DNA of 64,000 nt from positions 5,418-69,417 of the forward strand of contig JAVBOO010000022.1 in the NCBI GenBank assembly GCA_031550435.1, read 5' to 3'. This DNA comes from Eubacteriales bacterium. GTDB lineage: Bacteria; Bacillota; Clostridia; Lachnospirales; WRAX01. This document shows, in pieces, positions 2,903 to 47,875 of this stretch. The notes beneath the pieces are model-generated. The model worked only from the letters and a program-made list of their open reading frames with translations. It was not told where the DNA came from and did not search any database. Positions within the stretch are counted from its first letter, which is position 1. Each line of letters starts with the position of its first letter. The position numbers and the translations under genes are program-made.

Positions 2903-3281
2903 GGTACAATAAAATATAACGCGGGTTTCGTTATATTTTATTGCCGATGTAATATTACCGCGGAAGTTAAATTCCGCATAAAACACTTACGCGGTTACTC
3001 GTGCCGAGCCGGAGCGCTCAGAAATCGTCTGCGTGCTTCTTGCAGCGATTTCTGCTCCGTAGCGAGGGTACAATAAAATATAACGCGGGTTTCGTTATAT
3101 TTTATTGCCGATGTAATATTACCGCGGAAGTTAAATACCGCATTAAATACTTACGCGGTTACTCGTGCCGAGCCGGAGCGCTCAGAAATCGTCTGCGTGC
3201 TTCTTGCAGCGATTTCTGCTCCGAAGCGAGGGTACAATAAAATATAACGCGGGTTTCGTTATATTTTATTGCCGATGTAAT
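2903..3281 (+). repeat. Tandem array of mosaic intergenic elements: a solo module B followed by two 164-bp A-C-B units
   Basis: Units at 2954-3117 and 3118-3281 differ by 4 substitutions. Solo B lies at 2903-2953. Each module is a hairpin. Confidence 0.95.
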
Positions 3282-3465
3282 AAGTACAAGCGGCTATTGC
3301 AAAACTCTCTTAAAGTTGATAGGATATTACGCAGACACAGCAAAAATTCGTTTTTGTTTTCTCGAACGCGTTAAGGCTTTAATGGATTTTCGGCATTTTC
3401 GGCCTTGCTCTGTTTTTGCGGCTATACCGTTTAATTTGTTCGCACTTAGTTTTCGGGGGGTACAA

Positions 3466-3921
3466 ATGCTTGCGCTAAAGATTGACGGAACGGAAATAAA
3501 GAAATTTATGAACTCTTTGCTTATTGAAAATACATTTGACGAATTCGAGTTTCGAGAAGCCGTTATATCGTCTTTCGTCAGGTTTGAGATTGACGGCAAA
3601 CCTCCTGCCGGAACCCCCGATGAAGAAAAGAAATACTCACCGTGGACGGAAGTTAAACCCTATATTTTTAACATAATTAAAGGCAAAACAAAGCCCCGGC
3701 AGATGAAGTTTGTTTTTTCATATCCCTATGAAAAAACCGAGGAGTTTAATGCACAAGCAAAGGCTCTGTTTTTGAACATATTATTCGAAAACGAAGCCGT
3801 TCTGATAACTTCCGGCTGCCAAACAAAGGTTTTTACTCTGGATAAAGGCGTAGAAAGCGCTTGGGACTCATACGTTAAATCATTTTTTGTATTAAAGGGA
3901 ACAGCGTTTGCCGAAGTGTGA
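3466..3921 (+). CDS. Hypothetical protein (151 aa)
   Basis: The ORF is open from 3316, but the first 50 codons look non-coding. ATG 3466 has a G-rich SD-like run 5 nt upstream. No family recognised. Confidence 0.5.
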   Translation: MLALKIDGTEIKKFMNSLLIENTFDEFEFREAVISSFVRFEIDGKPPAGTPDEEKKYSPWTEVKPYIFNIIKGKTKPRQMKFVFSYPYEKTEEFNAQAKALFLNILFENEAVLITSGCQTKVFTLDKGVESAWDSYVKSFFVLKGTAFAEV

Positions 3922-4125
3922 AAAATGCGCAAGTCCGGTCTTTTTGCCGTTCGTGCCCGGTAATATGCCGTATGTAGCGACGACCCAATATATCCCTTGA
4001 GTTTAGAGGTTATACGTCCGCCGATATGGCAGAACGTTTTATTTTCGCCGCAGTAATGCAGGTTTTGTGAGCAATTCCAACCATACATATCGTCTTTAAG
4101 ATGATAAGAACCGGGGGGGACAACA

Positions 4126-4800
4126 ATGCTTACAGCTATCCTGCATTTTTTGTTTATATTCGGAAAAATAAAATCAGGCAACTCGTTTCCAAAACCTTTG
4201 TCTGGCGCCGAGGAACAGGAGTGTTTAAAATTGTTCGCGGAAGGAGACCTGGCTGCCAGAAATAAACTTGTGGAGCACAATCAGCGCCTTGTAGCTTTTC
4301 TCGCCAAAAAATATCAAAACATTACCAACGAAAGCGAAGATCTTATCTCAGTCGGAACAATCGGCCTCATAAAGGCCATTCAGACTTTCAACAACTCAAA
4401 GGGCAACAGGCTGGCAACCTATGCTTCGAGGTGTATAGAAAACGAAATACTAATGTATATTCGTTCTCTCAAGAAGTATTCAAACGACATTTCGCTCTGT
4501 GAGCCGATGGGCGTTGACAGGGAGGGCAACGAAATAACATTAGAAGATAAGCTTGCTGACGAAAACTGCGATATAGAGGCTCAGGTATCCCTTAAGCTGA
4601 CCATAAAGGAGCTGGTACAAAAGCTTGGTCAGACCTTGGTAGGCAGGGAAAGAGAAATTATCGAAAAGCGTTACGGCTTAGGCAACAAAGAAGAATATAC
4701 TCAGCGTGAAATTGCAAAGGAAATGGGTATCTCCAGAAGCTATGTGTCCAGAATAGAGAAAAAAGCGGTAAAAAGACTGAAAGAAAAGATGGAGGAATAA
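4126..4800 (+). CDS. sigK: RNA polymerase sporulation sigma factor K (pro-sigma-K), uninterrupted
   Basis: 224 aa. The pro-sequence plus GNSFPKPLS matches the B. subtilis pro-sigma-K NNAFPQPLS junction. Regions 2 to 4 are present (DLISVGTIGLIKA, ATYASRCIENEILMY, REIAKEMGISRSYVSRIEKKA). Confidence 0.85.
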   Translation: MLTAILHFLFIFGKIKSGNSFPKPLSGAEEQECLKLFAEGDLAARNKLVEHNQRLVAFLAKKYQNITNESEDLISVGTIGLIKAIQTFNNSKGNRLATYASRCIENEILMYIRSLKKYSNDISLCEPMGVDREGNEITLEDKLADENCDIEAQVSLKLTIKELVQKLGQTLVGREREIIEKRYGLGNKEEYTQREIAKEMGISRSYVSRIEKKAVKRLKEKMEE

Positions 4801-4893
4801 ATAAAACAACTTTTGCTCAACGCCGATTAATTGACTTTCGGCAGATACACGTCTGATTTAATACGCGCCGCATTGTAACGCCGCGGCACCCAT

Positions 4894-5017
4894 AAAGGAA
4901 GTGTTGAAAATTACGTACGAAGACTAAGAATTGGTCTTAGCGGGCGGCGCTCTCCCTTGGAAAATGGTGCTTTTCCATTTTCAAGGTAAAGCCGCAAGGC
5001 AATTTTTCAACATGCCC
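4894..5017 (+). repeat. Module E copy 1, a 124-bp multi-hairpin element
   Basis: About 85% identical to 39316-39441. Outer stem GTGTTGAAAATT/AATTTTTCAACAT, inner hairpins, and a GCC-GCAA-GGC tetraloop hairpin. Confidence 0.85.
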
Positions 5018-5025
5018 ATAAAGCC

Positions 5026-5059
5026 AAAACGGCTGCCGCAAAATGCGGCAACCGTTTTT
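5026..5059. terminator. Bidirectional intrinsic terminator between convergent sigK and the ABC operon
   Basis: AAAACGGcTGCCGC-aaaat-GCGGCAaCCGTTTT, with an A-run and a T-run on the two sides. Confidence 0.75.
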
Positions 5060-5082
5060 ATACTTTGCGACTGTGTTAATTG

Positions 5083-7014
5083 TTACCCTTCTATCAGACC
5101 CGTTGAGAACTGGCTTTTGTAAAGATTTGCATAGAAACCGTTCTGATCGAGCAGTGATTGATGGTTGCCCTGCTCCACGATGTCGCCGTTGTTCATCACG
5201 AGTATAAGGTCGGCATCTCTGATTGTGGAAAGCCTGTGAGCGATAACAAAGCAGGTTCTGCCCTTCATAAGGTTTTCCATAGCCTGTTGTATTCTTACTT
5301 CGGTACGGGTATCGACGGAGCTTGTTGCCTCGTCAAGTATCAATATTTTCGGATCGGCAAGTATTGCGCGGGCAATAGTTAAAAGCTGCTTCTGTCCCTG
5401 CGAAATATTCGTGGCTTCTTCGTTAAGCACCATATCGTAACCACCGGGAAGTGCTCTGACAAAGTGATCCACATAGGCCGCTTTTGAAGCGGAAACGACC
5501 TGTTCGTCTGTGGCGTTCAAATTACCGTAACGTATGTTTTCTTTCACACTGCCGTTAAACAGCCATGTGTCCTGTAATACCATGCCTATCATCTTACGCA
5601 GATCGTTCTTCTTGTACTCGGTTATGTTTTTCCCGCCGATTTTTATTGTGCCGCCGTTTAGCTCATAGAATCTCATAAGCAGTTTAACGATAGTTGTCTT
5701 GCCTGCGCCGGTCGGGCCGACAATAGCGATTTTTTGGCCGTTGCGCACTTTTTGGTTAAAATTGTTGATAACGATTTTTTCGGTTTCGTAACCGAATTTG
5801 ACGTTCTCGAATTCAACCGCACCGTCTATCCCTTGGGTGCTCACGGCGTTTACGGCATCCGGCAGCTCTTCGGGCTCGTTTAGGAATTCAAAAACTCTTT
5901 CGGCCGCCGCCGCAGTCGACTGGAGTATATTGGCGATCTGGGCAACCTGAGATACGGGCTGCGAGAAGTTTCTGACGTACTGTATAAACGAAAGTATGTC
6001 GCCGACTTTGATTTTACCCTGTATCGCAAAGAAGCTGCCCGCAATACAGACTATCACATAACCCAAATTGCCTATAAAGTTAATGAGCGGCATCATTACG
6101 CCGGAAAGGAATTGGGACTTCCACGCGGTTGAATAAAGAGTGTTGTTGTATTCCTCGAATTCGCTTACGGACTTTTCTTCGGCGTTAAATGCCTTCATAA
6201 CGTTATGCGCGCCGTAGATTTCTTCGACTTGGCCGTTAACGTGACCGACGTATTCCTGCTGTTTTTTAAAATATTTCTGCGAGTTTTTGACTACTATCGC
6301 AATAGCAATACCCGAAAGTGGGATAATAATCATCGAGATAAACGTCATCGCTACGTTTATTGTCAGCATCATCACCAATACGCCGACAAGCGTCGTCACG
6401 GATGTGATCATCTGCGAAAGGCTCTGCTGCAATGTCTGGTTTATCAAGTCAACGTCGTTTGTGACTCTTGAAAGCACTTCTCCGTGAGTCTTTTTGTCAA
6501 AGTACGAAAAAGGCAGTCTGCTGATCTTTCTGTCCAGCTCTTTTCTGAAATTATACGCGACCTTAACGGCTACTTTGTTCATGAGCAGACCTTGGAAAAA
6601 CGAGAGTATTGCGCCTGCCGCATACAGTATTATCAGCGTTATCATAAGGCCGGATATTTTTTCGAAGTTAATTCCGCCGTTACCGCCGAGCTTAGACATC
6701 AGGCCGTTAAAAATTTCCGTAGTCGCGTGACCGATTATCTTAGGACCTTGTATCGAAAACACGGTGCTTGTTATGGCGAAAACAAAAACGATGCTTATCG
6801 ACAAATAATAAGGCTGCAAATGCTTTAGCAGCATTTTCATTGTTCTCTTAAAGTTTTTCGGTTTTTCCCCGCCTATTCTCATGGGGCCGCCGGGGCCATG
6901 GCCGCCTTGGCGCTGCACTACTTTCCCCTGCGGTTTTTCTTTTTTGGATTTGCCGCGTCTTTCGCTGTGGAGGGGTTGATTTGCTTGAATGTTGCCTTTT
7001 TCGTCTTTACGCAT
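5083..7014 (-). CDS. ABC exporter, fused permease/ATPase (second subunit of heterodimer pair 1)
   Basis: 643 aa with six TM helices. Walker A GPTGAGKTT, signature ISQGQKQL, Walker B ILILDEATS. Gly/Lys-rich N-terminal tail. Overlaps the upstream gene by 8 bp. Confidence 0.9.
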   Translation of the reverse strand: MRKDEKGNIQANQPLHSERRGKSKKEKPQGKVVQRQGGHGPGGPMRIGGEKPKNFKRTMKMLLKHLQPYYLSISIVFVFAITSTVFSIQGPKIIGHATTEIFNGLMSKLGGNGGINFEKISGLMITLIILYAAGAILSFFQGLLMNKVAVKVAYNFRKELDRKISRLPFSYFDKKTHGEVLSRVTNDVDLINQTLQQSLSQMITSVTTLVGVLVMMLTINVAMTFISMIIIPLSGIAIAIVVKNSQKYFKKQQEYVGHVNGQVEEIYGAHNVMKAFNAEEKSVSEFEEYNNTLYSTAWKSQFLSGVMMPLINFIGNLGYVIVCIAGSFFAIQGKIKVGDILSFIQYVRNFSQPVSQVAQIANILQSTAAAAERVFEFLNEPEELPDAVNAVSTQGIDGAVEFENVKFGYETEKIVINNFNQKVRNGQKIAIVGPTGAGKTTIVKLLMRFYELNGGTIKIGGKNITEYKKNDLRKMIGMVLQDTWLFNGSVKENIRYGNLNATDEQVVSASKAAYVDHFVRALPGGYDMVLNEEATNISQGQKQLLTIARAILADPKILILDEATSSVDTRTEVRIQQAMENLMKGRTCFVIAHRLSTIRDADLILVMNNGDIVEQGNHQSLLDQNGFYANLYKSQFSTGLIEG

Positions 7015-9250
7015 TCATTAACTCCTCCTTTGAAAGCTGCGACAGCGCGATTTGATTGTAAACTTCGCAAGATTCGAGCAGGTCGCGGTGTTTGCCCGTA
7101 CCGACTATTTTTCCCTCGTCCAATACAATTATGTTGTCCGCGTCTTTAATCGTTCCTATTCTCTGCGCGACGATTATGACGGTTTTGTCCTTCATTTCTT
7201 TGTCCAGGGCTTCCCTGAGCTTTCTGTCCGTCTTGTAGTCAAGAGCGGAGAAGCTGTCGTCGAAAATCAGGATTTCGGGATCTTTTGCGAGCGCGCGCGC
7301 TATGGAAAGACGCTGTCTCTGTCCGCCGGACACGTTAACGCCGCCCTGAGAAATCGGCTCTTGAAATTTTTCTGATTTTTCGTTTATAAACTCTTCAGCC
7401 TGCGAAATACGCGCGGCTTTTTCCATAAGTTCATCCGTCATGTTTTCATCGGCGTACTTGATGTTTGATTCTATCGAACCCGAGAACAGCAAGGCTTTTT
7501 GCGGAACAAGACCGATAAGGCTTCGCAAATCGTGCTGCTTCATATCGCGGACGTTTACGCCGCCGACGGTTATGCTGCCTTCCGTGGAATCATAGAATCT
7601 GGGTATCAGGTTTATCAGCGTTGATTTACCGCAGCCGGTACTTCCTATAAGAGCGGTTGTGGTTCCGGGAGTCGCTTTGAAGCTTATGTTGTGAAGAACG
7701 TTTTCTTCTGCTCCGGGATATTTGAAAAAGACATCCTTAAATTCCACTACACCTTTTTTGCTCTTCTCGGGCAATTTTGCGGATTCCGGGTCGAGTATGG
7801 ATACCTTTGACTTTAGCACATCGTGTATTCGGTTCGCCGCGACCGTTGCTCGGGGAAGCATCATTGATATCATGGTCATCATGAGGAACGACATCATTAT
7901 TTGCATAGAGTACTGCAAGAACGCCATCATATCGCCGACCTGCATTATGCCTGCGTCGATATTGTGCGCCCCGAGCCAAATGATGACAAGTGATATACCG
8001 TTAAGCGTTATCATCATGATGGGCATCATAAACGAGAATACTTTGCCTATGAATAAACCGATTTTTGTGAGATCGGTATTAACGTCCTCAAAGCGCTTCT
8101 CTTCAGTCTCCTGATTCGAGAAAGCTCTTATAACGGGCATACCCGTAAGAGTTTCTCTTAATACAAGGTTCATCTTGTCTATAAGCTTTTGAGTAAGCTT
8201 GAATTTAGGCACGGCTACGACAAACATTACAATAACTATCGCGATAATAATTCCGACGCCTGCGGCAATAATCCACGACATGCTGTAGTCTGTGCTCAGC
8301 ACCTTAAAAACTCCGCCCGTTGCAAGTATCGGGGCGTATATTACAACGCGGAACAGCATCGGTATCATTTGCTGTATGAGCTGAACATCGTTTGTTGTAC
8401 GCGTTATAAGAGATGCTGTCGAAAAGCTGTCAAACTCCTTGCTGGAAAAACTTACGACTTTTTTGAAAACAGCGTCTCTGATGTTTCTTCCAAGACCGGC
8501 GCCTATACGTGAGGCAAGCAATGTTTCAAAAATAATCGCGAAAAGTATGAGTCCCGAAAAACCCAGCATGTTGAGACCGGATTTATAGATATAATTGTTT
8601 TGCATACTCTTGATATCTGCGCCGAGAGCGGCATATTCCTGCTTGACAAATGTCGTTCCCAACTGCGTCGCCGTTGCCTTGGGAAGGTTGACGAGCAGCT
8701 CGTCTGCCTTTTGTATCATAGCCGCCCTGGCTTCGGCCGGAAGGTTCGCGAGAACGACAAACGGGTCTACACCCTCGGGAAACATCGAAAAATCGAAATT
8801 CGCGCCGGAGGTAAACGAGTCGGCCGAGTCTTTGTTGTTCAAGGCATATACCATTATCATGCTCTTTGGCAGAGCGCTGCCCAGCTCATCTTTAACAGCC
8901 TTATCTTTTGTGTTAAGTATTAATGTTGGTTCGGTTTCGGCAAGGGGATATTTTTTTAGATACTTGCCGTAGTCGCCTTCGCTGAAATTGTCACGCGATA
9001 ACAAAATATAGTTATCACTGAAAAGCTTGACCGTTTCGTCGTTCATCAGCGTAAAAAGATGCTCCGCCTCCGTTACCCTGATAGCTTCGGGAACAGCGTT
9101 TTCTATGCCGCCCTGCGAGAGACCGACGCTGACCACCTTCGACATGTAGTCCGGCAGTGACAGCTCCCCGTACGCTTGGAGGCCCAGAAGGAGTATAGCG
9201 AGAATTGCGATTGGGATAAATGGTTTGAAAAATCCCTTTAGTTTGAACAA
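7007..9250 (-). CDS. ABC exporter, fused permease/ATPase (first subunit of pair 1) with a large extracytoplasmic insertion after TM1
   Basis: Walker A GSTGCGKST, signature VSGGQRQR, Walker B ILIFDDSFS. Start placed at TTG 9250 (GGAAGG 7 nt upstream), with GTG 9259 as an alternative. The ORF-track extension to 9454 reads through a repeat. Confidence 0.8.
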   Translation of the reverse strand: MFKLKGFFKPFIPIAILAILLLGLQAYGELSLPDYMSKVVSVGLSQGGIENAVPEAIRVTEAEHLFTLMNDETVKLFSDNYILLSRDNFSEGDYGKYLKKYPLAETEPTLILNTKDKAVKDELGSALPKSMIMVYALNNKDSADSFTSGANFDFSMFPEGVDPFVVLANLPAEARAAMIQKADELLVNLPKATATQLGTTFVKQEYAALGADIKSMQNNYIYKSGLNMLGFSGLILFAIIFETLLASRIGAGLGRNIRDAVFKKVVSFSSKEFDSFSTASLITRTTNDVQLIQQMIPMLFRVVIYAPILATGGVFKVLSTDYSMSWIIAAGVGIIIAIVIVMFVVAVPKFKLTQKLIDKMNLVLRETLTGMPVIRAFSNQETEEKRFEDVNTDLTKIGLFIGKVFSFMMPIMMITLNGISLVIIWLGAHNIDAGIMQVGDMMAFLQYSMQIMMSFLMMTMISMMLPRATVAANRIHDVLKSKVSILDPESAKLPEKSKKGVVEFKDVFFKYPGAEENVLHNISFKATPGTTTALIGSTGCGKSTLINLIPRFYDSTEGSITVGGVNVRDMKQHDLRSLIGLVPQKALLFSGSIESNIKYADENMTDELMEKAARISQAEEFINEKSEKFQEPISQGGVNVSGGQRQRLSIARALAKDPEILIFDDSFSALDYKTDRKLREALDKEMKDKTVIIVAQRIGTIKDADNIIVLDEGKIVGTGKHRDLLESCEVYNQIALSQLSKEELMNA

Positions 9251-9340: not shown

Positions 9341-9454
9341 TCGGCTGCTTAAGTCCGCGTGTTTTAGTCCGCAACGCCCGCTTCGCGGTCTTGTGCGGAG
9401 CGAAACGCTTGCGGTTGGCAGCAAAGCGGCGCAACCGTTCGACTTAATCAGCAT
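9341..9454 (-). repeat. Module F copy, a ~114-bp nested-hairpin element
   Basis: Its reverse complement aligns with 30539-30651. Shared termini GCTGCTTAAGTC...GACTTAAGCAGC and core TCCGCACAAGACCGCGAAGCGGGCGTTGCGGA. Confidence 0.85.
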
Positions 9455-9667
9455 TTTTTTGTTAAACGTCAGCTCATTGCTAAAAAGGCTTCGGGCGTTT
9501 CGAATCGGGTCAATCAGTGCCTAAATGTTTGATTGCAGGGGTATTGATTTTGTTATATCGGCTATATGTATTGAAGTATTGCCGAGGCAGTAAAATATAC
9601 GCATACCGATTTCGTTTTGCTATATTACCACAGTAATATAAATGTGTCAATATGCTAATAAAAAATA

Positions 9668-14657: not shown

Positions 14658-14680
14658 AACTGAACACGATTTAAGTATAT

Positions 14681-14740
14681 ATTGCCGCGGAAGTTAAATA
14701 CCGCATAAAATACTTACGCGGTTACTCGTGCCGAAGTAAT
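14681..14740 (+). repeat. Short derivative of the A-C-B element (module A fused directly to the GCCGAAGTAAT terminus)
   Basis: ATTGCCGCGGAAGTTAAATACCGCATAAAATACTTACGCGGTTACTCGTGCCGAAGTAAT. Confidence 0.85.
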
Positions 14741-14748
14741 ACACTGTG

Positions 14749-14786
14749 AACCGTACCATACCGTGATGTTTGGTACGGTTTTTTAT
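14749..14786 (+). terminator. Intrinsic terminator of ABC pair 2
   Basis: AACCGTACCA / TGGTACGGTT stem followed by TTTTTTATT. Confidence 0.8.
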
Positions 14787-14962
14787 TGCGCAGAGACTGT
14801 TTTATAGCATGAGCTTATGTCGAAAAATTGCCATGCGGTTTTCAGTTTAAAACGCGAAAGCGCCGTTTTCCAGTGTGTATCCCACCTTCTCAATCCGCCC
14901 GACGTGTTTTGTATGCAACTTTCAACACTTACGTGAATAAATGATTACATTTTAGGCAGAAT

Positions 14963-15174
14963 ATTACTGTGATACCATTGAGGCGACAGTTAAACCATTC
15001 ACTAGACTTGTCGCCTCAATCCTCCTTAGACTCACAGGGCCGGTATAAGGGGGCGATTAAACCGTATGGTTTAATCATTAACGATTCTATCACCCCCTTT
15101 ACCGGGCAAGAAGGGTTCAAGGGGAGACAAAACCGCATGGTTAATGCGGGCAAATTCAACCGTCAAACGGTAAT
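14963..15174 (+). repeat. Module D element, long form, with ATTACTG...CGGTAAT ends
   Basis: Hairpin TTGAGGCGACA...TGTCGCCTCAA, then GGTATAAGGGGG...CCCCCTTTACC enclosing GATTAAACC/GGTTTAATC. Related copies lie at 16631-16755 and 43081-43156. Confidence 0.8.
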
Positions 15175-15735: not shown

Positions 15736-15743
15736 ATTATTCG

Positions 15744-15815
15744 ATTACTTCTGTAACAAAATATAGCGAAAACGCTATATTCTGTTGTTCCCCCACTAAG
15801 ACGCAGATGCGCCGT
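15744..15815 (-). repeat. Truncated A-C-B element (terminus, module B hairpin and part of module C)
   Basis: ATTACTTCTGTAACAAAATATAGCGaaaaCGCTATATTCTGTTGTTCCCCCACTAAGACGCAGATGCGCC. Confidence 0.8.
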
Positions 15816-15843
15816 AACGCTTAAACCACACCCCCAACTAATC

Positions 15844-16599
15844 TTACAACCCCGTTCTCCCTAAAAAGTTTACGAGATGTGGAAGTATAAACACCTCTAT
15901 CATGCCGGCCAGAGCTACGCAGGCAGCCCCGATTATCAGTACAACGGTATACTCAGAAATACTCAAGGCGCTTATTTGAGAAAAATGTGATTTTATACCG
16001 GCAAACAGGCCTTTGCCTGTTTTGTGTACGGCTTTCGCGGGAAGAAGCTTGCCTATGGCAAACGAAAACCCCGATACGGTTATGAAAATATATGTCGGCA
16101 CCAATATAATATTTTGCAGAAGAAACAAAAGTATCGCGTTGTAGATTCCCGATGCTCCGAACAGCCTGACAAAAAATGTCGCGGTGAACCCAAGCGTCAT
16201 ACCTTTTACAAATAACAGCGGCAGGGTTAAAAAAATCGCCTGCGGTATAAAAGCGATAATCCAAAGCACAGCCGCAGTTTTGCCGTATTTCATAAAACAC
16301 TCGAAAAACAGCTCCCCTCCGGAACCGGAAAAAGCTGTGTTTCCGCTGAAGTACATAGTTATATAATCCGACAAAGGGCCGAATTTTTCCTGCGTCAGGC
16401 CAAGAGCGTAAACAACGCCGCAAATCGCGCCCATAAGCATGGTTATCGCCGCAATGGCCGTTAAATGCGCCTTTGGACTTCTTTTTCTATCTGAATGCGA
16501 CAAATAAGTTCCGATGGCCGAACCCCTCCCATATAATGCTTCGGCAATAAAATACAACGGAGGCCGCTGTTTTTTGCTGCGGCCGGGCTTGTCTTTCAC
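15844..16599 (-). CDS. spoIIM: Stage II sporulation protein M-like membrane protein
   Basis: Matches B. subtilis SpoIIM blocks by eye: LFVKGMTLGFTATFFV vs LFLKGVVVGFTVGFLV, and LLQNIILVPTYIF vs LPQNILVIPAYLI. The GTG start has no clear SD, so the N-terminus is uncertain. Confidence 0.7.
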   Translation of the reverse strand: MKDKPGRSKKQRPPLYFIAEALYGRGSAIGTYLSHSDRKRSPKAHLTAIAAITMLMGAICGVVYALGLTQEKFGPLSDYITMYFSGNTAFSGSGGELFFECFMKYGKTAAVLWIIAFIPQAIFLTLPLLFVKGMTLGFTATFFVRLFGASGIYNAILLFLLQNIILVPTYIFITVSGFSFAIGKLLPAKAVHKTGKGLFAGIKSHFSQISALSISEYTVVLIIGAACVALAGMIEVFILPHLVNFLGRTGL

Positions 16600-16630
16600 T
16601 CAGATATTCTATGAAATAAAACAATAATAT

Positions 16631-16755
16631 ATTACTGTTGTTGAGGCGACAATTAAACCATTTACTAAACTTGTTTCCTCAATCCACCCCATGCCCGCAG
16701 AGCCGGTATAAGTCGGTAATCAAACCGTTTGCGGTTTAATCGAGTATGCCGGCAA
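16631..16755 (+). repeat. Module D element
   Basis: ATTACTGTTG-TTGAGGCGACAATTAAACC...CCGGTATAAGTCGGTAATCAAACCGTTTGCGGTTTAATC...TATGCCGG. Confidence 0.8.
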
Positions 16756-19308: not shown

Positions 19309-19329
19309 ATTAACACCCCGTTTTATTAT

Positions 19330-19487
19330 ATTACCGCAGAAGTTAAATACCGCAAAAAGTACTTACGCGGAACTAGGCCGAGCAGACGCGCTAATGTGCG
19401 CCGCAGCGCTCCGATGAGGCGCATCTGCGTCTAAGCGAGGGAACAACAAAATACAGCGTGTTTGCTATATCTTGTTGCCGAAGTAAT
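19330..19487 (+). repeat. Complete A-C-B mosaic element (158 bp)
   Basis: ATTACCGCAGAAGTTAAATACCGC...ACTTACGCGG (A), a variable GC-rich hairpin (C), then CAACAAAATACAGC/GCTATATCTTGTTG (B) ending GCCGAAGTAAT. Confidence 0.9.
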
Positions 19488-19514
19488 AACAGCGGCATAT
19501 CAGAAGCTTCCGCT

Positions 19515-20906: not shown

Positions 20907-21147
20907 CTCTCCACGTTCCTTTACAATTATATTACTATTATATTTCATTATCGGTCAATTTATTGACAACGAATCGGGCTTTATATATCATATAATCAGA
21001 TAAGTGTCTGCATCGTGGCACTGTATACTTAAAACACGTAACTTGATGGTGTCTCTCGGTTCAAGCAAGCGCGTAAGTATTTTATGCGATAATTTACACT
21101 TTTATCCAGTTTATACCATCATATAACTTTTGTAAAGGAGGCAGCCC

Positions 21148-23151: not shown

Positions 23152-23216
23152 TAGTACTTCGGCTCGGCCCAAGTAACCGCGTAAGTATTTTGCGGGAATT
23201 TAACTTCCGCGGCAAT
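23152..23216 (-). repeat. Short derivative of the A-C-B element (terminus plus module A)
   Basis: AGTACTTCGGCTCGGCCCAAGTAACCGCGTAAGTATTTTGCGGGAATTTAACTTCCGCGGCAAT. Ends 3 bp from the rnfB stop. Confidence 0.85.
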
Positions 23217-23218
23217 AT

Positions 23219-24085
23219 TTACTTCGCGTCCTGTTCCTTCATGTCTTTTTGCATTTCTCTTTCTCGCTCTTTCGCAACGTTATCCGCACTTATAAGCTTT
23301 ATACAGTGCGTCGGGCATTTTCTTTCGCACTCGCCGCAGCGCACGCATTTGTCGTAGTCGATTTTGGCAAGATTGTTTGTAACATGTACGGCATCGTAAT
23401 TACAAGCTTTTTCGCACATTTTGCACGAAATGCAACCGACCTTGCAGTTAGCTCTGACGGTTTTGCCGTGGTCGAGCGAGTTACATCCCACGCGATAGTC
23501 CGCGGAATACGGAACAAGCTCGATAAGCTTTCTCGGGCACTTGGGAACACACATTCCGCATGCCGTACATTTTTCGGGGTCAACCTTTGCGATACCGTCA
23601 ATTAAAGACAGCGCGTCAAACCCGCAAGCCCGCACGCAGCTCCCGGAGCCGAGACAGCCGTAAGCACACTGCTTCGAGCCTCCGCCCGCGAGCATCGAAA
23701 CGGCTCGGCAATCCGCTATGCCGTAATAATCGTATCTAAATATCGCATCTGTAAAGTTTCCCGCACATTTAACATACGCAACATATTTTTCTTTCGCCTC
23801 GACCGCCACACCCATAACCGCGCCAACTGCCTGAGCGCATTTCGTTCCGCCGACCGGACAGCCGTTTACGGGAGCGCTGCCCGCGACAACGGCCTGAGCA
23901 AAGCCGTCGCAGCCGGGAAAGCCGCAGCCGCCGCAGTTCGCCCCGGGTAAACATGCTCTTACATCCCCGATCCTCGGGTCTTCTTCAACTTTAAATATCT
24001 TCCCCGCATAGCCGAGAGCAAGTCCGAAAACGAGTCCGAGTCCGCCTATGCTTGCGACCGGATACAGTATATCTGTCAGATTCAA
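23219..24085 (-). CDS. rnfB: Rnf complex subunit B (polyferredoxin)
   Basis: N-terminal TM helix, CGGCGFPGC, and several CxxCxxCxxxCP clusters. Last gene of rnfCDGEAB. Confidence 0.9.
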   Translation of the reverse strand: MNLTDILYPVASIGGLGLVFGLALGYAGKIFKVEEDPRIGDVRACLPGANCGGCGFPGCDGFAQAVVAGSAPVNGCPVGGTKCAQAVGAVMGVAVEAKEKYVAYVKCAGNFTDAIFRYDYYGIADCRAVSMLAGGGSKQCAYGCLGSGSCVRACGFDALSLIDGIAKVDPEKCTACGMCVPKCPRKLIELVPYSADYRVGCNSLDHGKTVRANCKVGCISCKMCEKACNYDAVHVTNNLAKIDYDKCVRCGECERKCPTHCIKLISADNVAKEREREMQKDMKEQDAK

Positions 24086-28277: not shown

Positions 28278-28418
28278 TTTTACCTCCGAATCCGCGTAAA
28301 CATTTTTGCCAAAAAACATTTTCATGCACAACGTTTACATATTAATGCGTTTTATTCTAACCGCAAACTTCACAATTAACAAGAGAAATTTTCAACATTT
28401 CCATCGGTTTCCTTCCTC

Positions 28419-30532: not shown

Positions 30533-30700
30533 AAATAAGTGCTGCTTAAGTCGAACGGTTGTGCCCGCAAGGGACAACCGCAAGCGTTCCGCTCCGCACA
30601 AAGACCGCAAAGCGGGCGTTGCGGACAAGAACGCGCGGACTTAGGCAGCCGAGTAAATAAGTGCTGCTTAAGTCGAACGGTTGCGCCGCTCCGCACAAAT
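30533..30700 (+). repeat. Module F: one full copy plus a partial second copy
   Basis: AAATAAGTGCTGCTTAAGTCGAACGGTTG occurs at both 30533 and 30655. The full copy ends GGACTTAGGCAGCCGAG and contains a CCC-GCAA-GGG hairpin and the core TCCGCACAAAGACCGCAAAGCGGGCGTTGCGGA. Confidence 0.9.
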
Positions 30701-39055: not shown

Positions 39056-39221
39056 AGCGTTCAACTCCTGTTCTCGTTTTTCCTTATATGTTTGCGTGAA
39101 TCGTTTAAGACCGTTTCGCTTAACGATTTTTGATGACTTTGCTTGAGATTTCTGTTAAGTCGCATAAAGCAAAAACAAATTTTATCATATTAATTATATC
39201 AAAGAAAACACCTTTGTAAAT

Positions 39222-39463
39222 ATTACTTCGGCAACAAAATATAGAAAAGCGCTATATTTTGTTGTTCCCTCGCTAAGACGCAGAAACGCGTCTGCTCGGC
39301 ACGAGTAACCGCGTAAAAGGAAATGTTGAAAATTGCGCACGAAACTCACTTTAGTGGGTTGAGCGAGCGGCGCTCTCCTTTGAAAAATGGTGTTTTCCCA
39401 TTTTCAATGGAAAGCCGCAAGGCGATTTTTCAACATGCCCCTATATTGTGTTGCCGAAGTAAT
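39222..39463. repeat. Composite 242-bp element with perfect 15-bp terminal inverted repeats, containing module E copy 2
   Basis: ATTACTTCGGCAACA (39222-39236) pairs with TGTTGCCGAAGTAAT (39449-39463). Interior: module B hairpin, a minimal C hairpin AGACGC-agaaac-GCGTCT, a half of module A, then module E (39316-39441). Confidence 0.9.
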
Positions 39464-39516
39464 ACTTTTTCCTGCGACCGTCAAGGCTTTTGTGCATAAA
39501 GTACAGTCTTTGCAAT

Positions 39517-41804: not shown

Positions 41805-41832
41805 CCCACCATTCACAAACCATAAATTGCAC

Positions 41833-41876
41833 AAAAAACTTCGCCGTCGGGCATAATCCGGCGGTGAAGTTTTTTG
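41833..41876. terminator. Bidirectional terminator between convergent genes
   Basis: AAAAAACTTCGCCG...CGGCGgtGAAGTTTTTT. Confidence 0.65.
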
Positions 41877-41911
41877 TATTACGCCAATTATAACCGTGGA
41901 AGTTAAACAGC

Positions 41912-42904
41912 TCACACCTTGCTTTTTACCACATATATTATCCCGCTCCAGGCTTTTTCGACCTGAGCCTCGGCATAATACTTCTTGACCTTTGTCTCGT
42001 CCGGATCAGCGGGGTCGTTTACGATAATGTAATCCGTTCCGTCAACGCATTCATATCCCACAACTGCAATAAGATGCCCGTGCGGATATGCCTGCGGCGC
42101 TCCTTCAATATCACTGATACTCGTTGTCGCAATCGAAAACGAGACGGGATACCCTTCGGACAGATATTTTTTAACTGTCTCGATACTCTCGCAGCGCTCT
42201 ACATACGCTTCAAAGCCGAGTTCGCTTGCCGCCGCAACGGTATACGACCAGTTTCCGTACATATCTCCGCCGCTATCATATGACAATTCGGCAAAATCCA
42301 AAGTCGGTATTTTTCGTCCGTGGTACTCGAGTATCATGGCAAGCGAGGTCGGACTGCAAATTATGTTCCCGATTTCGGGCACAACCATCTGCGACCTTCC
42401 GGGAACGGGAAGATAAACACTTTCCTTGATTTTCGCGCTTTGTGCCGTCCTTTCGTCCGAATACTTCGGAGATACCGCAAGCAGGCTGACCTCGGGAGAA
42501 GTGCAGCCCGAGTTATCGCGTCTAAGGAAAATTTTGCACTGAAACGCCGTTCCGTCAGCTCTGACGGCAAAAACGGTATCATCGATTATCTTCGCGTACT
42601 CGCCGGCAGCACATGAACTGCCGCTCCTCTTCCCCAAAAACGACGACCATCTGCCGTAAGAAAACCAGTCTGACATAACCTCGCCGGTTTTTATGCGAAC
42701 CTGCATCTCAACCGAAGATCTGTATCCCGTCTTAGAATTCCATGACGCGACAATATTCTTAAACGTTTGGCAGGCAAAAAGCTCGGATTCGTAGTAACCC
42801 TCGGCGCAATCGCCGTTCAGCTTGAGCTTGAAGTCCTCCGTAAGCGTTAATCCGGAAAGTTTGCCGTTCTTGAACTTTTCACCATCGATAATTAATACAG
42901 CCAT
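41912..42904 (-). CDS. Peptidase C39-like (C39_2) cysteine peptidase-domain protein with an unknown N-terminal domain
   Basis: NIICSPTSLAMILEY (Cys) and HGHLIAVVGY (His). No signal peptide. GGAGGT RBS. Confidence 0.7.
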   Translation of the reverse strand: MAVLIIDGEKFKNGKLSGLTLTEDFKLKLNGDCAEGYYESELFACQTFKNIVASWNSKTGYRSSVEMQVRIKTGEVMSDWFSYGRWSSFLGKRSGSSCAAGEYAKIIDDTVFAVRADGTAFQCKIFLRRDNSGCTSPEVSLLAVSPKYSDERTAQSAKIKESVYLPVPGRSQMVVPEIGNIICSPTSLAMILEYHGRKIPTLDFAELSYDSGGDMYGNWSYTVAAASELGFEAYVERCESIETVKKYLSEGYPVSFSIATTSISDIEGAPQAYPHGHLIAVVGYECVDGTDYIIVNDPADPDETKVKKYYAEAQVEKAWSGIIYVVKSKV

Positions 42905-42930
42905 AGCTACCTCCGAAAGCAGTTTCTTTT

Positions 42931-43172
42931 ATTACTTCGGCAATAAAATATAACGAAACCCGCGTTAAATTTTATTGTACCCTCGCTCTGGAGCAGAAAT
43001 CGCTGCTAGAATCATGCAGACGATTTCTAAGCGCTCCGGCTCGGCACGAGTAACCGCGTAAGTATTTTATGCGGTATTTATTGAGGCGACAATTAAATCA
43101 TTCGCTAAACTTGTCGCCTCAATCCCCCTTAAGCCCTCAGAGCCGGTATAAGGGGGTAACTTACGCGGTAAT
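42931..43172 (-). repeat. A-C-B element (reverse orientation) interrupted by a 76-bp module D
   Basis: ATTACTTCGGCAATAAAATATAACG... (B), GGAGCAGAAATCGCTGC... (C), then GAGTAACCGCGTAAGTATTTTATGCGGTATTTA [D] TAACTTACGCGGTAAT (A). Confidence 0.9.
43081..43156 (+). mobile_element. Short module D copy nested in the loop of module A
   Basis: Uninterrupted copies read GCGGTATTTAACTTCCGCGG. Here the sequence is GCGGTATTTA + 76 bp + TAACTTACGCGG, so TA appears on both sides. Confidence 0.6.
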
Positions 43173-43235
43173 ATTATACATAATAAAAAAGATATAGTAA
43201 ATGCTGATTTAATCAAACGGTTGCGCTCGCCAAAG

Positions 43236-43286
43236 CGGCAAAACAAAACGAACCGCGGCAAACGGCCTGTAAATCGTTTGCCGCGG
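43236..43286 (-). terminator. Intrinsic terminator of the beta-propeller gene
   Basis: 12-bp perfect stem CCGCGGCAAACG / CGTTTGCCGCGG. The minus strand continues UUCGUUUUGUUUUG. Confidence 0.7.
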
Positions 43287-43336
43287 CTCGCCGCGCTAAA
43301 GCTTTTTAACTGCCGGATAGTTCGCTTTGCCTTTCG

Positions 43337-45775
43337 TTATTCGGCCTGCAAAGTATAAGCCACCGAATTCTTGTACGAAAGCGAGGTTATCTCGTTTGCC
43401 TGTATACCGTAACCGGACAAAGTATAGAATGTGTCTCCGATGTAAAGTATTCTCTGGATTGCTTTGTTGTAGTCATAACTGCCGTATTGGTCGTAATCCG
43501 AAGCGTTGAGCTGAGAAATGGTTCCTCTCTCGGAGATACCGTTTAAGCCTATATCAAATACATAAGCTCCGCTGAAGCTTTCATGAGTCTTACCGGAATA
43601 GTCCGTGTACTGATAGCTCGTAACGGGGAAGGCGAAAAACCCTTTTTCCTTTGAGAATACCATAGCCTTCGGGTTGTAAAGCAGCTCCGAGTAAGTAGAC
43701 TGGTTCCCGAACGATACAGAAGAAAGCTCTTTCGGATTCATCATGTCGCTTATGTCAAACATGGCGAGTTTTAAACCTACGTTAACCGTTCTTACGTCAA
43801 CAACATTGCCCTTGGAGTCCGTCGAAGTAACTTGATCCGTGTCCATACCGAAGCCTATAAGGTGATTTTCGTCATAGGGGTGCAGATATGTGCTGTATCC
43901 GGGTATTTTCAGTTCACCGAGCACAGTCGGACTCGAAGGATTGCTCAAGTCTATCGCGAACAGCGGGTCAACAGTTCTGTACGTTACCATAAACGCTCTG
44001 TCTCCCATGAATCTTGCAGAGTATACTCTTTCTCCGGGTGCCATTTCCTTAATACTTCCCGTTATATTCATGCTTGAATCCAGAACATAAAGCTGATTTC
44101 TGAGGTTTTCTCCCCAGCCGCCTTTTGTCGTCGCGATTCTGAAATAGCCTTCGTATTCGTCCATACTGTACTGATTGAGTACTGAACCTTCGACAACGCC
44201 CGTCGCGTTATACACTGCGTAGCCGTCACTGAGCGTGAACCTGAATATCGAAGTCGCGTCGCTAAGCTGATTCGAACCGGGCGCGATATCAATTGACGTG
44301 CGCATTATACCTATGTTGTAGGCGTAGTTGTACTTTGTCACGTACAGTGACGATTCCGACATGTAAATCTGCTGGCCCGAACCGAGTATCGAGGCAATTT
44401 GCGCATCGGCCAAGCTGTTTTTCAGGTTGATGCCGCATATCATGAGCAACGAATTGTCCTGAGCTTCCGGGAAGTACTGCATTGTAACACAGTCAATCGT
44501 CTTTTTGACCTTTCCCGATGCGGAATCATAATAGGTCGGAAGAATCTCGATGAGGTCTGTAATATTGTAGGTGTCAAGATATTGGTTTACAACAAGATAA
44601 AGCGTATCGCCGATTTTTCTGCTGTCTACAGTGCTTCCCTCGACAGAAAACTCTCTGGTTACAACCGGTTTTTCTTTGTTTGCGATGTCATAGACTATGA
44701 CCTTCGCGACACTCGTACCGTAGTACCTGTAGTCGGCAATCATTTTCGAGCTCACAGCCGGAGCCGTTGCACCGTCGGAGGCCTTAGGCTCGGTCATCGT
44801 TTCGACCGGGTCAGCGGGAACCCAGGTGTAACCTATAACAATAAGAAGATTTCCGTCAATATACATCTGACTCGGATAAAAACCGTTTGCCTCGTTTGAA
44901 TAGCTTATAGTGGAAACTGTTTTCATTGAATCCGCCGGATATGCCTTTACTATATTAATAGCAGGTATATTAAAATTAAGGTGATAGATATATTGTCCGT
45001 CGGTTTTTACAACGTCCGCTTCGTCAACTCCCGCAACCTGAACGTTCGTCTGAGAATAATCATCCGCTCCTCTTGCGGCATCTGCCGCCGGAGCCATTTC
45101 CATTGCCGTTTGGTTCTCGGACATTGTCATCTTTTCGCCCTTATAAACGCCGTTATTCGTTATACTCAGCTTAGCGAGTATGTCCTTAAGGTTCGCAGCC
45201 GAGCCTACTGCGGGAAGGCCGCTTAGTGCGGCAATACCTTCGTTTATCAGCGCGGCATCCGTCTTGACGTTATAGGTTCTTTCTTTGTCAAGGATAATGA
45301 GTCCTCTGTCATAAGTAACATTGAGACCCATGGCCTTCGCGACATACGATATGGGAACGAGCGTGCGTCCGTTCTTCGATATCGACGCCGCGTCCATTGT
45401 AACGTTTTTGCCGTTTTGTTTCATAATCTTTGAGCCGAGAACAAATTGCAGAGTTAGACTGTCTTTTTCCAGTGTGGCCGTCTTTGTTGCGTCCGCCCAG
45501 CTTACGTCAAAGCCCAATGCGTTAGCCACAAAACTTAGCGGCATCATCGTTCTGGAATTTTCTATGAACGGTACAACCGCAGCATTTGAATCTATCTGTT
45601 TCGCGGCTCCGTATACAAGCGCTTTGGGGCTGCCAACGAGCAGCACGACCGCGTTTCCTAAGCCGGCTGTTGCCCCGTCGTCGGCAAGAGCGCTGCTCGG
45701 CGACATAGCGAGTGATGTTACACTCACAATCATAGCCAGTGTAACGGCCGCTAATAACGAGATTTTCTTTTTCAT
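43337..45775 (-). CDS. Secreted beta-propeller-domain protein with N-terminal copper-amine-oxidase-N-like repeats
   Basis: Signal peptide (AVTLAMIVSVTSLAMSPSSALA). Two stalk repeats (MMPLSFVANALGFDVSW, LVPISYVAKAMGLNVTY). C-terminal blocks TNVQVAGVDEADVVKTDGQYIY and RFMGDRAFMVTYRTVDPLFAIDLSNP are typical of the secreted Beta_propel family (from memory). Confidence 0.8.
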   Translation of the reverse strand: MKKKISLLAAVTLAMIVSVTSLAMSPSSALADDGATAGLGNAVVLLVGSPKALVYGAAKQIDSNAAVVPFIENSRTMMPLSFVANALGFDVSWADATKTATLEKDSLTLQFVLGSKIMKQNGKNVTMDAASISKNGRTLVPISYVAKAMGLNVTYDRGLIILDKERTYNVKTDAALINEGIAALSGLPAVGSAANLKDILAKLSITNNGVYKGEKMTMSENQTAMEMAPAADAARGADDYSQTNVQVAGVDEADVVKTDGQYIYHLNFNIPAINIVKAYPADSMKTVSTISYSNEANGFYPSQMYIDGNLLIVIGYTWVPADPVETMTEPKASDGATAPAVSSKMIADYRYYGTSVAKVIVYDIANKEKPVVTREFSVEGSTVDSRKIGDTLYLVVNQYLDTYNITDLIEILPTYYDSASGKVKKTIDCVTMQYFPEAQDNSLLMICGINLKNSLADAQIASILGSGQQIYMSESSLYVTKYNYAYNIGIMRTSIDIAPGSNQLSDATSIFRFTLSDGYAVYNATGVVEGSVLNQYSMDEYEGYFRIATTKGGWGENLRNQLYVLDSSMNITGSIKEMAPGERVYSARFMGDRAFMVTYRTVDPLFAIDLSNPSSPTVLGELKIPGYSTYLHPYDENHLIGFGMDTDQVTSTDSKGNVVDVRTVNVGLKLAMFDISDMMNPKELSSVSFGNQSTYSELLYNPKAMVFSKEKGFFAFPVTSYQYTDYSGKTHESFSGAYVFDIGLNGISERGTISQLNASDYDQYGSYDYNKAIQRILYIGDTFYTLSGYGIQANEITSLSYKNSVAYTLQAE

Positions 45776-45867
45776 TTTGCATACCTCCGATTATTTCTTT
45801 TGCTTTATAAACGGCAAAGGGTACAATTTGTTCCCTGCGGAAATTCCGGAAATTATCGACGTATCGG

Positions 45868-47373
45868 TTAATTCAACCCGTAAACCTTTGTGTACTTATC
45901 TTCGAGATATTTGACGTAGTAATCCGCGTTCAGTTTCTCGCCCGATATTGCTGTAATAATCTCGTCGGGAGTTTTCAGAGAGCCGTATTGATGGATCTTC
46001 TCTTTCAGCCAATCTTTAATCGGGCCGAAATCCCCCTTGCGGACAAGACCCAAAACGTCCAAGTCCTTTTGCATAAAACTGTAAATCTGTGCGGCATACG
46101 CGTTTCCGAGCGAATATGACGGGAAGTAGCCTATCATACCGCCGCTCCAGTGAACATCCTGGAGTATGCCTTCGGCATCGGAGCCGGGTGTTATTCCTAG
46201 ATATTCCTCATACTTTTTGTTCCAAAGCACCGGAAGTTCGTCTATATTATACTCCCCGGATATAAGCATTTTCTCTATTTCATATCTGATCATTATATGA
46301 AGAGAATAGGTCAGCTCATCGGCCTCGGTACGTATAAGAGAAGGCTCGGCGACGTTTACCGCGCTACAGAACATCTCGGGTGTTATATCTCTGAAATCGT
46401 CCCCAAGTATCTCCATGAGCTCGTCATAGATATTCTGCCAGAACTCGAGGCTTCTTCCTATTATATTCTCAAAAAATCTCGATTGCGATTCATGAATGCC
46501 CATCGAAACCCCGGAATCGAGCATAGTTCCGGCTATATCGTCCCGTTTGCTCTGCTCGTACAGCGAATGCCCGTATTCATGCAAAACGCTGAAGAACGAC
46601 GAGAGAAACATGTTTTCGCGATAGTGCGTAGTTATTCTTACATCGTCTCTCGTAAAATTCATTGTAAAAGGGTGCGCGCTCTCTTTAAGCATGCCCCTGT
46701 TATAATCAAAGCCCACTTTCCGAAGAAGCAGCTCTGATATTTTTTGCTGTTTTTCTTTAGAAACATAACGAGTCGTAAAGCTTGTGTCAGGTTTTTTGCC
46801 CTCGGTTTGAATCCGTTTCAAAAGGGGAACGATAGTCTGCTTCATTTTTGAGAAAAAAACATCGAGCTGCTCGACAGTCAAACCTTCTTCATAATCATCG
46901 AGCAGGCAGTTATAAGGATGAACCTTGTAGCCTCTATAACCTATAAATTTTATACCGTACTTTATTATTTTATCAAGCGTCTCTTTGAAAAACGAAAAAT
47001 CGTTGTTTTCCTTCGCTTCTTCCCATATGTTCTGTGAGTTCGAAGTCAGCTCGCTGTAGGCCATAAACTCCGCGACCGGTATGGATCTGTACGAGTGATA
47101 TGCCTTTTTGCAGTACTTGAGCATAACGCTTGTAATTTCGTCAAGCTCCGATGCATGGGCTTCAAGCTCGTCGATATACCCCTTCATTTCATCCGAAATC
47201 GATAAGGAAAAAGCTTCACCGGCCAAAACGCTCATAATCACCGCCCTGGCACGGTTTCCGCCCTTCGGCGCTCCCGTTGCCATGTCCCAGCTGAACATAC
47301 CGCAAGCCATGTTAAGCGCAACAAATTTGTCGGTATATTTCTTAAATTCCGCTATTGTGTTTTCAATACTCAT
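45868..47373 (-). CDS. Carboxypeptidase M32 (Taq-type metallocarboxypeptidase)
   Basis: HEYGHSLYE zinc motif, IHESQSRFFE and HWSGG blocks. AGGAGGG RBS. Confidence 0.88.
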   Translation of the reverse strand: MSIENTIAEFKKYTDKFVALNMACGMFSWDMATGAPKGGNRARAVIMSVLAGEAFSLSISDEMKGYIDELEAHASELDEITSVMLKYCKKAYHSYRSIPVAEFMAYSELTSNSQNIWEEAKENNDFSFFKETLDKIIKYGIKFIGYRGYKVHPYNCLLDDYEEGLTVEQLDVFFSKMKQTIVPLLKRIQTEGKKPDTSFTTRYVSKEKQQKISELLLRKVGFDYNRGMLKESAHPFTMNFTRDDVRITTHYRENMFLSSFFSVLHEYGHSLYEQSKRDDIAGTMLDSGVSMGIHESQSRFFENIIGRSLEFWQNIYDELMEILGDDFRDITPEMFCSAVNVAEPSLIRTEADELTYSLHIMIRYEIEKMLISGEYNIDELPVLWNKKYEEYLGITPGSDAEGILQDVHWSGGMIGYFPSYSLGNAYAAQIYSFMQKDLDVLGLVRKGDFGPIKDWLKEKIHQYGSLKTPDEIITAISGEKLNADYYVKYLEDKYTKVYGLN

Positions 47374-47400
47374 ATTACCCTCCTAAATTGTATATTAAGT

Positions 47401-47610
47401 GGTATAAAACCCGAACTTTTCGGAGCGTATGCGCAGAAAAGCTTGACGCCTTATCCGCACAAAGACCGCAAAGCGGGCGTTGCGGATTCAGCGGCAAGGG
47501 GTTTTGTACCCGAACAACCGAGTGGTACAAAACCAAACTTTTCGAAACGTATGCACAGAAAAGCTTGCTGCCTTATCCGCGCAAAGACCGTAAAAGCGTT
47601 GACCGGGCTT
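47401..47610 (+). repeat. Two tandem module G copies (relatives of module F sharing its core)
   Basis: GGTATAAAACCCGAACTTTTCGGAGCGTATGCGCAGAAAAGCTTGACGCCTTATCCGCACAAAGACCGCAAAGCG begins at 47401 and a diverged copy begins at 47524. Copy 1 closes with GGGGTTTTGTACC. Confidence 0.85.
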
Positions 47611-47717
47611 GCGCGCTAACTCTGCGAACGGTTTATGTTCGATACCGCAAAGAAAGTCTTAAAATTGCTGCTATTGCCGCCATCTTTTGGACTATCTTAT
47701 CATCGGCTTTCATTAAT

Positions 47718-47875
47718 ATTACTTCGGCATCAAAATATAGGAAAACGCTATATTTTGCTGTTCCCCGGCTTAGACGCAGATTCTCCGTATTGTAGCGCCG
47801 CGGCGTATCTGAGCGCGCCTGCAAGACCCAAGTAACCGCGTAGTATTCTATACGGTATTTAACTTCCTCGGTAAT
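47718..47875 (-). repeat. Complete A-C-B element (reverse orientation)
   Basis: ATTACTTCGGCATCAAAATATAGgaaaacgCTATATTTTGCTG...TTAGACGCAGA...AAGTAACCGCGTAGTATTCTATACGGTATTTAACTTCCTCGGTAAT. Confidence 0.9.

Follow-up and report, generated by a model that had tools for sequence, protein, structure and literature searches.

A modular family of hairpin-rich intergenic repeats with inverted-repeat ends in an uncultured Clostridia genome

What are the small repeats that crowd the spaces between the genes of this Eubacteriales bacterium, and what could have moved them? The question was raised by a stretch of 64,000 nt (assembly GCA_031550435.1, contig JAVBOO010000022.1, positions 5,418 to 69,417), which is called the window hereafter. 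Here an original prediction, made from the letters alone, had described modular elements with ATTAC...GTAAT ends and had likened them to the enterobacterial REP/BIME repeats that are mobilised by RAYT transposases. Copies were established by repeat finding, direct reading, MAFFT alignment and nhmmer profiles of the three modules, which revealed one non-coding repeat family, termed F1. Its full unit measures 160-166 nt, is built of the modules A-C-B and has the ends TATTAC...GTAATA. The predicted modular, hairpin-rich and non-coding character of the family and its inverted-repeat ends were borne out by alignment, profiles and end comparison, and the main coordinates proved correct to within 1 nt. 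The window holds five full copies, two minis that consist of A only, one C+B remnant, a composite and several relics. F1 is probably a lineage-specific, small, non-coding and non-autonomous family of the kind known as MITEs (miniature inverted-repeat transposable elements), residing in a novel Clostridia genome.

Anatomy and copies of the F1 family

Module A, the conserved left arm of about 55 nt, reads TATTACCGCGGAAGTTAAATACCGCATAAAATACTTACGCGGTTACTCGTGCCGAG. Module C is a replaceable central hairpin, found in two unrelated versions and in a short version within the composite. Module B, the conserved right arm, is a 15-bp AT-rich hairpin followed by the tail CCGAAGTAATA, and its copies follow the pattern GG(T/A)ACAA(T/C)AAAATATA(A/G)CG-loop-CG(T/C)TATATTTT(A/G)TTGCCGA(A/T)GTAATA. 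The hairpin of B ends 11 nt before the right terminus, and the bases 5' of its stem are GGTA or GGAA, varying between subfamilies, with no GTAG-type motif at the hairpin foot. All six frames of the full units are rich in stop codons, so that the units lack protein-coding capacity.

In all five full copies, 14-16 of the 24 terminal positions on the left and right agree when the ends are compared as an inverted repeat, a perfect TATTAC among them. The terminal inverted repeat (TIR) is imperfect and spans about 21 nt (about 16/21), with the pattern TATTAC-YK-CGG-..-AAATA, and TA is invariant at both ends of intact copies. Copies at seven independent loci cease to resemble one another precisely at TATTAC and GTAATA. 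Beyond these points the flanks are unrelated between copies, and the right-flank similarities did not rise above shuffled controls, on which ground co-mobilisation of the right flank, by rolling-circle or one-ended transposition, was rejected.

The copies fall into two subfamilies. Members of subfamily 1 are 93-98% identical to each other and those of subfamily 2 79%, as against 73-74% across the subfamilies; the C modules of the two are unrelated in sequence. Two subfamilies at these identity levels indicate successive waves of spread, presumably at least two, rather than one duplication. When folded as single strands and compared with shuffles, module A gave a z of -3.0, the subfamily 1 version of C -2.9 and module B -4.8, whereas the C modules of subfamily 2 folded no better than shuffles. 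The B hairpin is 92% paired across copies and shows two compensatory double changes between the subfamilies, while the covariation test of the A stem gave disruptive changes only.

Altogether 12-14 F1 loci are spread over 45 kb of the 64 kb on both strands, and every copy is intergenic on the map of open reading frames (ORFs), in agreement with the predicted intergenic placement and very high density. A 20-nt pattern from module A matched the window exactly six times, compared with no match in 100 shuffles, and the end motifs of F1 are 5-7 times over-represented. As to the claim that the family occupies most large intergenic gaps, F1 alone is present in 7-8 of the 15 gaps of at least 200 nt; 11 of 15 are reached once three other repeat families are counted as well.

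All five complete A-C-B units of the original prediction were recovered. On the plus strand, a solo B module (right-arm hairpin and terminus GCCGATGTAATA; 2903-2954) abuts the first full unit, of subfamily 1 (2953-3118; A 2953-3008, C 3004-3068, B 3063-3118), and the second full unit (3117-3282) follows with 98% identity to the first and a GTAA-TA-TTAC junction that has a single TA in common. A further subfamily 1 unit lies on the minus strand at 42930-43173 and is 93-94% identical to the tandem units; it measures 244 nt solely because a 78-nt repeat of another family, F3, is nested in its A loop at 43079-43156, an insert that had been counted as part of the predicted unit. Subfamily 2 is represented by a plus-strand unit with a different C that runs antisense to its flanking genes (19329-19488) and by a minus-strand unit 135 nt downstream of the transfer-messenger RNA (tmRNA) gene (47717-47876).

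The predicted deleted derivatives were found as well. In the mini at 14680-14741 (plus strand), A is joined straight to the right terminus, and the element sits between a stop codon (14657) and a terminator hairpin (about 14745-14790). The second mini, at 23152-23217 (minus strand; A and GCCGAGCCGAAGTACTA), likewise lies between a stop codon and a terminator hairpin, starting 1-2 nt past the stop codon of rnfB. The third derivative, a subfamily 2 remnant at 15743-15819 (minus strand), retains the 3' part of C and B. The composite at 39221-39464 (minus strand) has outer ends with 16 perfect inverted bases, one more than predicted, and 23 of 24 in total. Read on the plus strand, it consists of a reverse-complemented B (39221-39272), a reverse-complemented short C and the reverse-complemented 3' half of A (to 39316), continued by an element of a further family, F4 (about 39321-39449), and then by the 3' half of B in plus orientation (39439-39464).

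The small fragments fared unevenly in the nhmmer module profiles, the source of the E-values in this paragraph. A relic of A without the left terminus is clear at 21055-21094 (minus strand; E 3e-6), and a left-terminus fragment of A at 41889-41909 (plus strand; E 0.019) is probably a real piece of F1, whereas the candidate at 53147-53160 was indistinguishable from chance (E 0.8). Two relics were added to those predicted, one of module B at 16538-16579 (minus strand; E 1.7e-5) and a weak, degenerate one with the 5' part of A and the right terminus CCACAGTAATA at 9577-9638 (plus strand; E 0.17). As had been noticed, copies abut stop codons, namely the mini at rnfB and the fragment at 41889-41909, which adjoins the gene at 41912-42904. 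Insertions of F1 may have reshaped the 3' ends of these two genes (41909-41914 in the latter). The last codons and stop of rnfB (GCG AAG TAA; 23217-23225) resemble the right terminus GCCGAAGTAA.

Proposed mobilisation of F1 and its rivals

Following the definition of MITEs in PMC3184786 and PMC3049150, F1 is shorter than about 400 bp, non-coding, bounded by terminal inverted repeats and dispersed in copies with unrelated flanks. The likeness to REP/BIME repeats and RAYT, in turn, was not supported: F1 has three unrelated hairpins in a fixed order, no GTAG motif, terminal hairpins unlike each other and no Y1 gene in the window. Since the terminal hairpins differ while the ends form an inverted repeat over 14-16 of 24 positions, the pattern is that of a TIR-type MITE.

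We propose that a transposase encoded elsewhere in the genome, preferably of the DDE type, would bind the inverted ends of F1 in trans and insert the element into AT-rich intergenic DNA, with TA dinucleotides as targets and often next to a resident right end. After insertion, unequal crossing-over would give rise to the B-[ACB]-[ACB] array. A deletion between short GCCGA direct repeats would yield the A-only minis; in the alignment GCCGA is present at the A/C border and in the right terminus, and a deletion between the two explains the minis. The central module C would be exchanged, and other small repeats (F3, F4) would insert into F1 in a nested manner. Copies would be kept where they are harmless, that is in 3' untranslated regions (UTRs) from stop codon to terminator and between genes, mostly in sense orientation. 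A TA target is consistent with the invariant TA at both ends and with the single TA common to the tandem-unit junctions and to the B/A junction of a locus on another contig (P0122, see below). The F3 insert in the A module of the 42930-43173 unit has TA on both sides, compared with a single TA in the six uninterrupted A modules, and this comparison of filled and empty sites is compatible with a TA duplication or with none. The TA flanks of F1 would be consistent with a MITE derived from an insertion sequence (IS) of the IS630/Tc1-mariner type.

Several observations weigh against this proposal. No target-site duplication longer than TA was found around F1, and the invariant TA may belong to the inverted repeat rather than to a duplication. 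The inverted repeat itself is short and imperfect. No transposase with matching ends was found, and the window encodes no transposase at all, as predicted, in Pfam/NCBIfam searches of essentially all ORFs. No close relative was present in any collection searched, and the mobility of F1 is presumed from its anatomy. At four of seven independent loci a GTA(N)ATA resembling the right end precedes the left end, with no mirror signal on the right, which a symmetric cut-and-paste target does not predict. Three loci show B directly abutting A, and the left flank of the copy at 42930-43173 resembles a degenerate half of B. Seven of the eight loci with unambiguous context are in sense orientation relative to the flanking genes. 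Neither the abutment nor the orientation bias is predicted by simple symmetric cut-and-paste, so that mobilisation by HUH enzymes stays a minority rival; preferential insertion beside resident ends could be an alternative explanation of the left-flank motif, the abutment and the bias. HUH mobilisation or RNA-level selection could likewise account for the sense bias and for the covariation in B. A replication terminus or dif site as the source of the bias was rejected: no dif-like site was found, and the GC skew tracks the gene strand.

On the HUH alternative, F1 would move as single-stranded DNA by a Y1 enzyme, either RAYT, as for REP/BIME/REPIN, or a TnpA of the IS200/IS605 type, which would recognise the subterminal hairpins and cleave after a short motif, here GTAATA, carried by the left flank as well as by the right end. 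Hairpins do lie near both ends of F1, and the pairing of B was kept through its two compensatory changes. The motif resembling the right terminus stands left of F1 at the four loci and in the tandem junctions, and a cleavage motif that is also the target would naturally give head-to-tail arrays sharing that motif. Seven of the eight loci run in the direction of the genes, and probably of replication, in line with such a polarity. However, the A and B hairpins are unrelated in sequence, so that a single hairpin-specific enzyme would not be expected to bind the two. An inverted repeat, such as the ends of F1 form, is not required by HUH elements and is usually missing from them, and F1 shows neither a GTAG-type motif at the hairpin foot nor the alternation of a single palindromic unit seen in BIMEs. 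In addition, the window has no Y1/RAYT gene, the motif in the left flank is inexact, carrying one or two extra bases, and the composite, with two inverted B-type ends and clean outer boundaries, fits interchangeable inverted ends better. We therefore regard HUH mobilisation as unlikely.

A variant that we hold to be very improbable would place F1 together with the long forms of F3, whose termini are of the ATTA...TAAT type, in one class of hairpin cassettes that move as single strands and are cut after a GTAATA-like motif shared by the right end of the element and the target. If true, it would explain the left-flank motif, the head-to-tail arrays that share it, the compensatory changes in B and the orientation bias at once, and would join ends that look like inverted repeats with HUH-type polarity. 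To our knowledge, such a mode of mobilisation has not been described.

The placement and pairing of F1 bear on a further alternative, in which F1 is mainly a cis-acting RNA or DNA module selected by the host, not or no longer a transposon, and spread by recombination and selection; a 3'-UTR stabiliser, an attenuator or a protein-binding site are possible roles. The exact position between stop codon and terminator of the two minis (14680 and 23152), the sense bias and the B hairpin conserved with compensatory changes agree with it, as does the folding of the whole subfamily 1 unit, which is far better than that of shuffles (z -4.35). For whole units of subfamily 2, in contrast, folding was not better than that of shuffles (z -0.8 and 0.0), the A stem has only disruptive changes, and module C is replaced outright. 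Copies lie upstream, downstream and antisense of genes that are unrelated to each other, Rfam holds no such family, and the sharp inverted-repeat ends and nesting are hallmarks of a transposon. A cis role is compatible with a MITE origin and usually secondary to it; as the main explanation of F1 it seems to us quite improbable.

The favoured reading of F1 as a TIR-type MITE was further compared with known repeat systems. In their organisation, the nearest analogues are the modular BOX elements of pneumococci and the TA-flanked TIR elements RUP and Correia, of which the latter two duplicate a TA target and are linked to IS630. The BOX elements of Streptococcus pneumoniae and S. suis (boxA-boxB(n)-boxC) agree with F1 in being intergenic repeats of Firmicutes that are modular and non-coding, with conserved terminal modules and a centre that may be absent, exchanged or multiplied; like F1, they are strongly base-paired, clustered with and nested in other small repeats, and their mobilising enzyme is uncertain (PMC3049150). 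F1 differs from BOX in showing no sequence similarity to it, in having a single central hairpin of alternative types instead of a tandem boxB array, in its ends with the invariant TA, and in its host, which belongs to a distant, uncultured lineage of Clostridia. RUP (S. pneumoniae) and Correia (Neisseria) share with F1 a length of 100-160 nt, AT-richness, terminal inverted repeats, intergenic position, hairpin folding and transcription within neighbouring mRNAs (PMC3049150). The inverted repeat of F1 (about 16/21) is shorter and less perfect than the 26 bp of Correia, its TA duplication is a candidate, and no IS with similar ends is known for it.

REP, BIME and REPIN repeats resemble F1 in being hairpin-forming, extragenic, very dense, mosaic, arranged in tandem arrays and often placed in 3' UTRs. 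A REP is one short GC-rich palindrome with a conserved GTAG-type 5' motif, and REPs alternate in orientation and flank RAYT genes (PMC3184786), whereas F1 has three unlike, partly AT-rich hairpins in fixed A-C-B order and inverted-repeat termini. Its tandem units are head-to-tail and not alternating, and neither the GTAG motif nor, in the 64-kb window, a RAYT was seen. The palindrome-associated elements (PATEs), derived from IS200/IS605, share subterminal hairpins with F1, which also has a conserved motif left of the element and possibly a biased orientation; PATEs lack inverted-repeat ends and have left and right hairpins that are alike, in contrast to the differing hairpins and inverted-repeat ends of F1. 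F1 would accordingly count as a previously uncatalogued family of an ordinary, known kind, the MITE-like interspersed repeats, and opens no new biological question unless its mobilising enzyme proves unusual.

Host, distribution and independent assemblies

The window encodes SpoIIM, the Rnf complex, PPi-PFK, SigK and SmpB/tmRNA alongside ordinary housekeeping genes, and judged by this gene content the host is a spore-forming member of the Clostridia. Among 5.8 billion protein clusters, and leaving an exact copy aside, nothing exceeds 54% identity to its MurC; on protein comparison the host is a novel, poorly sampled and uncultured Clostridia lineage.

Exact DNA matches to the window came solely from the Logan assemblies of the runs SRR23967709 and SRR23967707, whose contigs are 100% identical to it; a literature search for these runs gave no hit. 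One of the contigs, L005 (14713-29662), runs through the divergent F1 copies at 15743-15819, 19329-19488 and 23152-23217. Contig ends fall inside high-identity F1 copies, for L005 at 14713 and for L001 at 39415 and 42959, as expected for multi-copy DNA. Other contig ends lie outside the mapped repeats: L005 at 29662, inside the PEPCK gene, L007 at 61148, and L006 at 1103, which is 27 nt into a recombinase gene and may reflect an 83%-identical recombinase paralogue in the same sample.

The 20-nt motif of module A had chance matches only in 185,579 species genomes, the JGI metagenomes and IMG/VR, and two further module patterns had no match in IMG/VR. A blastn search of the full unit against plasmids and phages returned nothing meaningful. 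In Rfam the modules match no described RNA family; the tmRNA alone passes the gathering threshold in the window, and the best hit over the tandem array (E 0.6) stays far under it. Protein collections were also searched with the translated open frames of the tandem array, and two spurious ORFs that translate F1 modules were found on other NCBI contigs; the window encodes neither. The first, P0121 on a contig of 65,054 nt, translates module A as NITAEVKYRIKYLRGYSCRA and then continues with a C of the subfamily 2 type. The second, P0122 on a contig of 146,006 nt, contains a B module, the same B/A junction with a single shared TA, and behind it an A-only mini whose CTCGTGCCGAAGTAATA junction is that of the copy at 14680. 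Therefore, F1 is not restricted to this region.

These results also bear on whether F1 could be a local segmental duplication or an assembly artefact limited to the region, as the lack of true copies in the scans of public collections might suggest. Several copies recur with 100% identity in the independent Logan contigs, so that the copies are not the artefact of one assembly. Moreover, their flanks are unrelated, they extend across 45 kb on both strands, and two more loci lie on other contigs. We consider a local or artefactual origin extremely improbable.

Small interspersed repeats shape intergenic regions, can alter mRNA stability or promoter context, and break short-read assemblies, as was seen in the Logan contigs. 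A catalogued F1 family would aid assembly and annotation in this poorly sampled Clostridia lineage and might provide markers for strain typing. When reverse-complemented, the left end of F1 (CCGCGGTAATA, for example at 2953-2963) equals 11 nt of the universal 16S rRNA 515F/519R primer region (530 loop). A literature search with the F1 end sequences returned 16S primers only. The match is a coincidence, but spurious hits of primers or probes to F1 are possible.

The spoIIID recombinase and other repeat families

Upstream of the tandem F1 array, a large serine recombinase of 511 aa is encoded at 1076-2611, and its stop codon directly abuts a spoIIID fragment (about 2604-2770). Of SpoIIID the fragment encodes the C-terminal half only, which matches the 82-position Pfam profile at positions 36-79; the 5' half of the gene lies outside the window, and sigK (4126-4800) is intact. 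The same layout of recombinase and spoIIID recurs in another contig from this sample (L008). Thousands of proteins from diverse Clostridia are 76-77% identical to the recombinase, many of them fused N-terminally to host ORFs, although the MurC of the host has such distant relatives. Based on the abutting partial spoIIID, the repeated layout and these relatives, the recombinase appears to belong to an element interrupting spoIIID and not to F1. As a mobiliser of F1 it was rejected, with no F1 left end upstream of it. The account of intervening elements in sporulation genes in PMC5595907 lists none in spoIIID.

Three other repeat families share the intergenic regions with F1. Apart from the copy nested in F1 at 43079-43156, F3 occurs at 14975-15056 (long form 14958-15080) and 16638-16719 (long form 16625-16745), and its core consists of two strong hairpins (z -7.3). 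The long forms start with TATTACTGT and finish with GGTTTAATC, termini that resemble the ATTAC...GTAAT of F1. This resemblance hints that F1 and F3 may have been moved by a common enzyme.

F4, of about 118 nt, has the inverted ends TGTTGAAAA(A)TT and is found at 4897-5014, 14810-14940 and 39321-39449, the last within the F1 composite, with a fragment near 28385. The copy at 4897-5014 is bounded by a perfect 9-bp direct repeat, CCCATAAAG (4888-4896 and 5015-5023), which is a candidate target-site duplication. F2 has units of about 122 nt, twice in tandem, and occurs at 9341-9460, 30533-30690 and 47398-47594. A stretch of 33 nt is 100% identical between 30593-30625 and 47454-47486, and the recurring motif of the family, CAACCGTTYGAYTTAATCAGC, is also present at 43195-43227 and 51715-51750.

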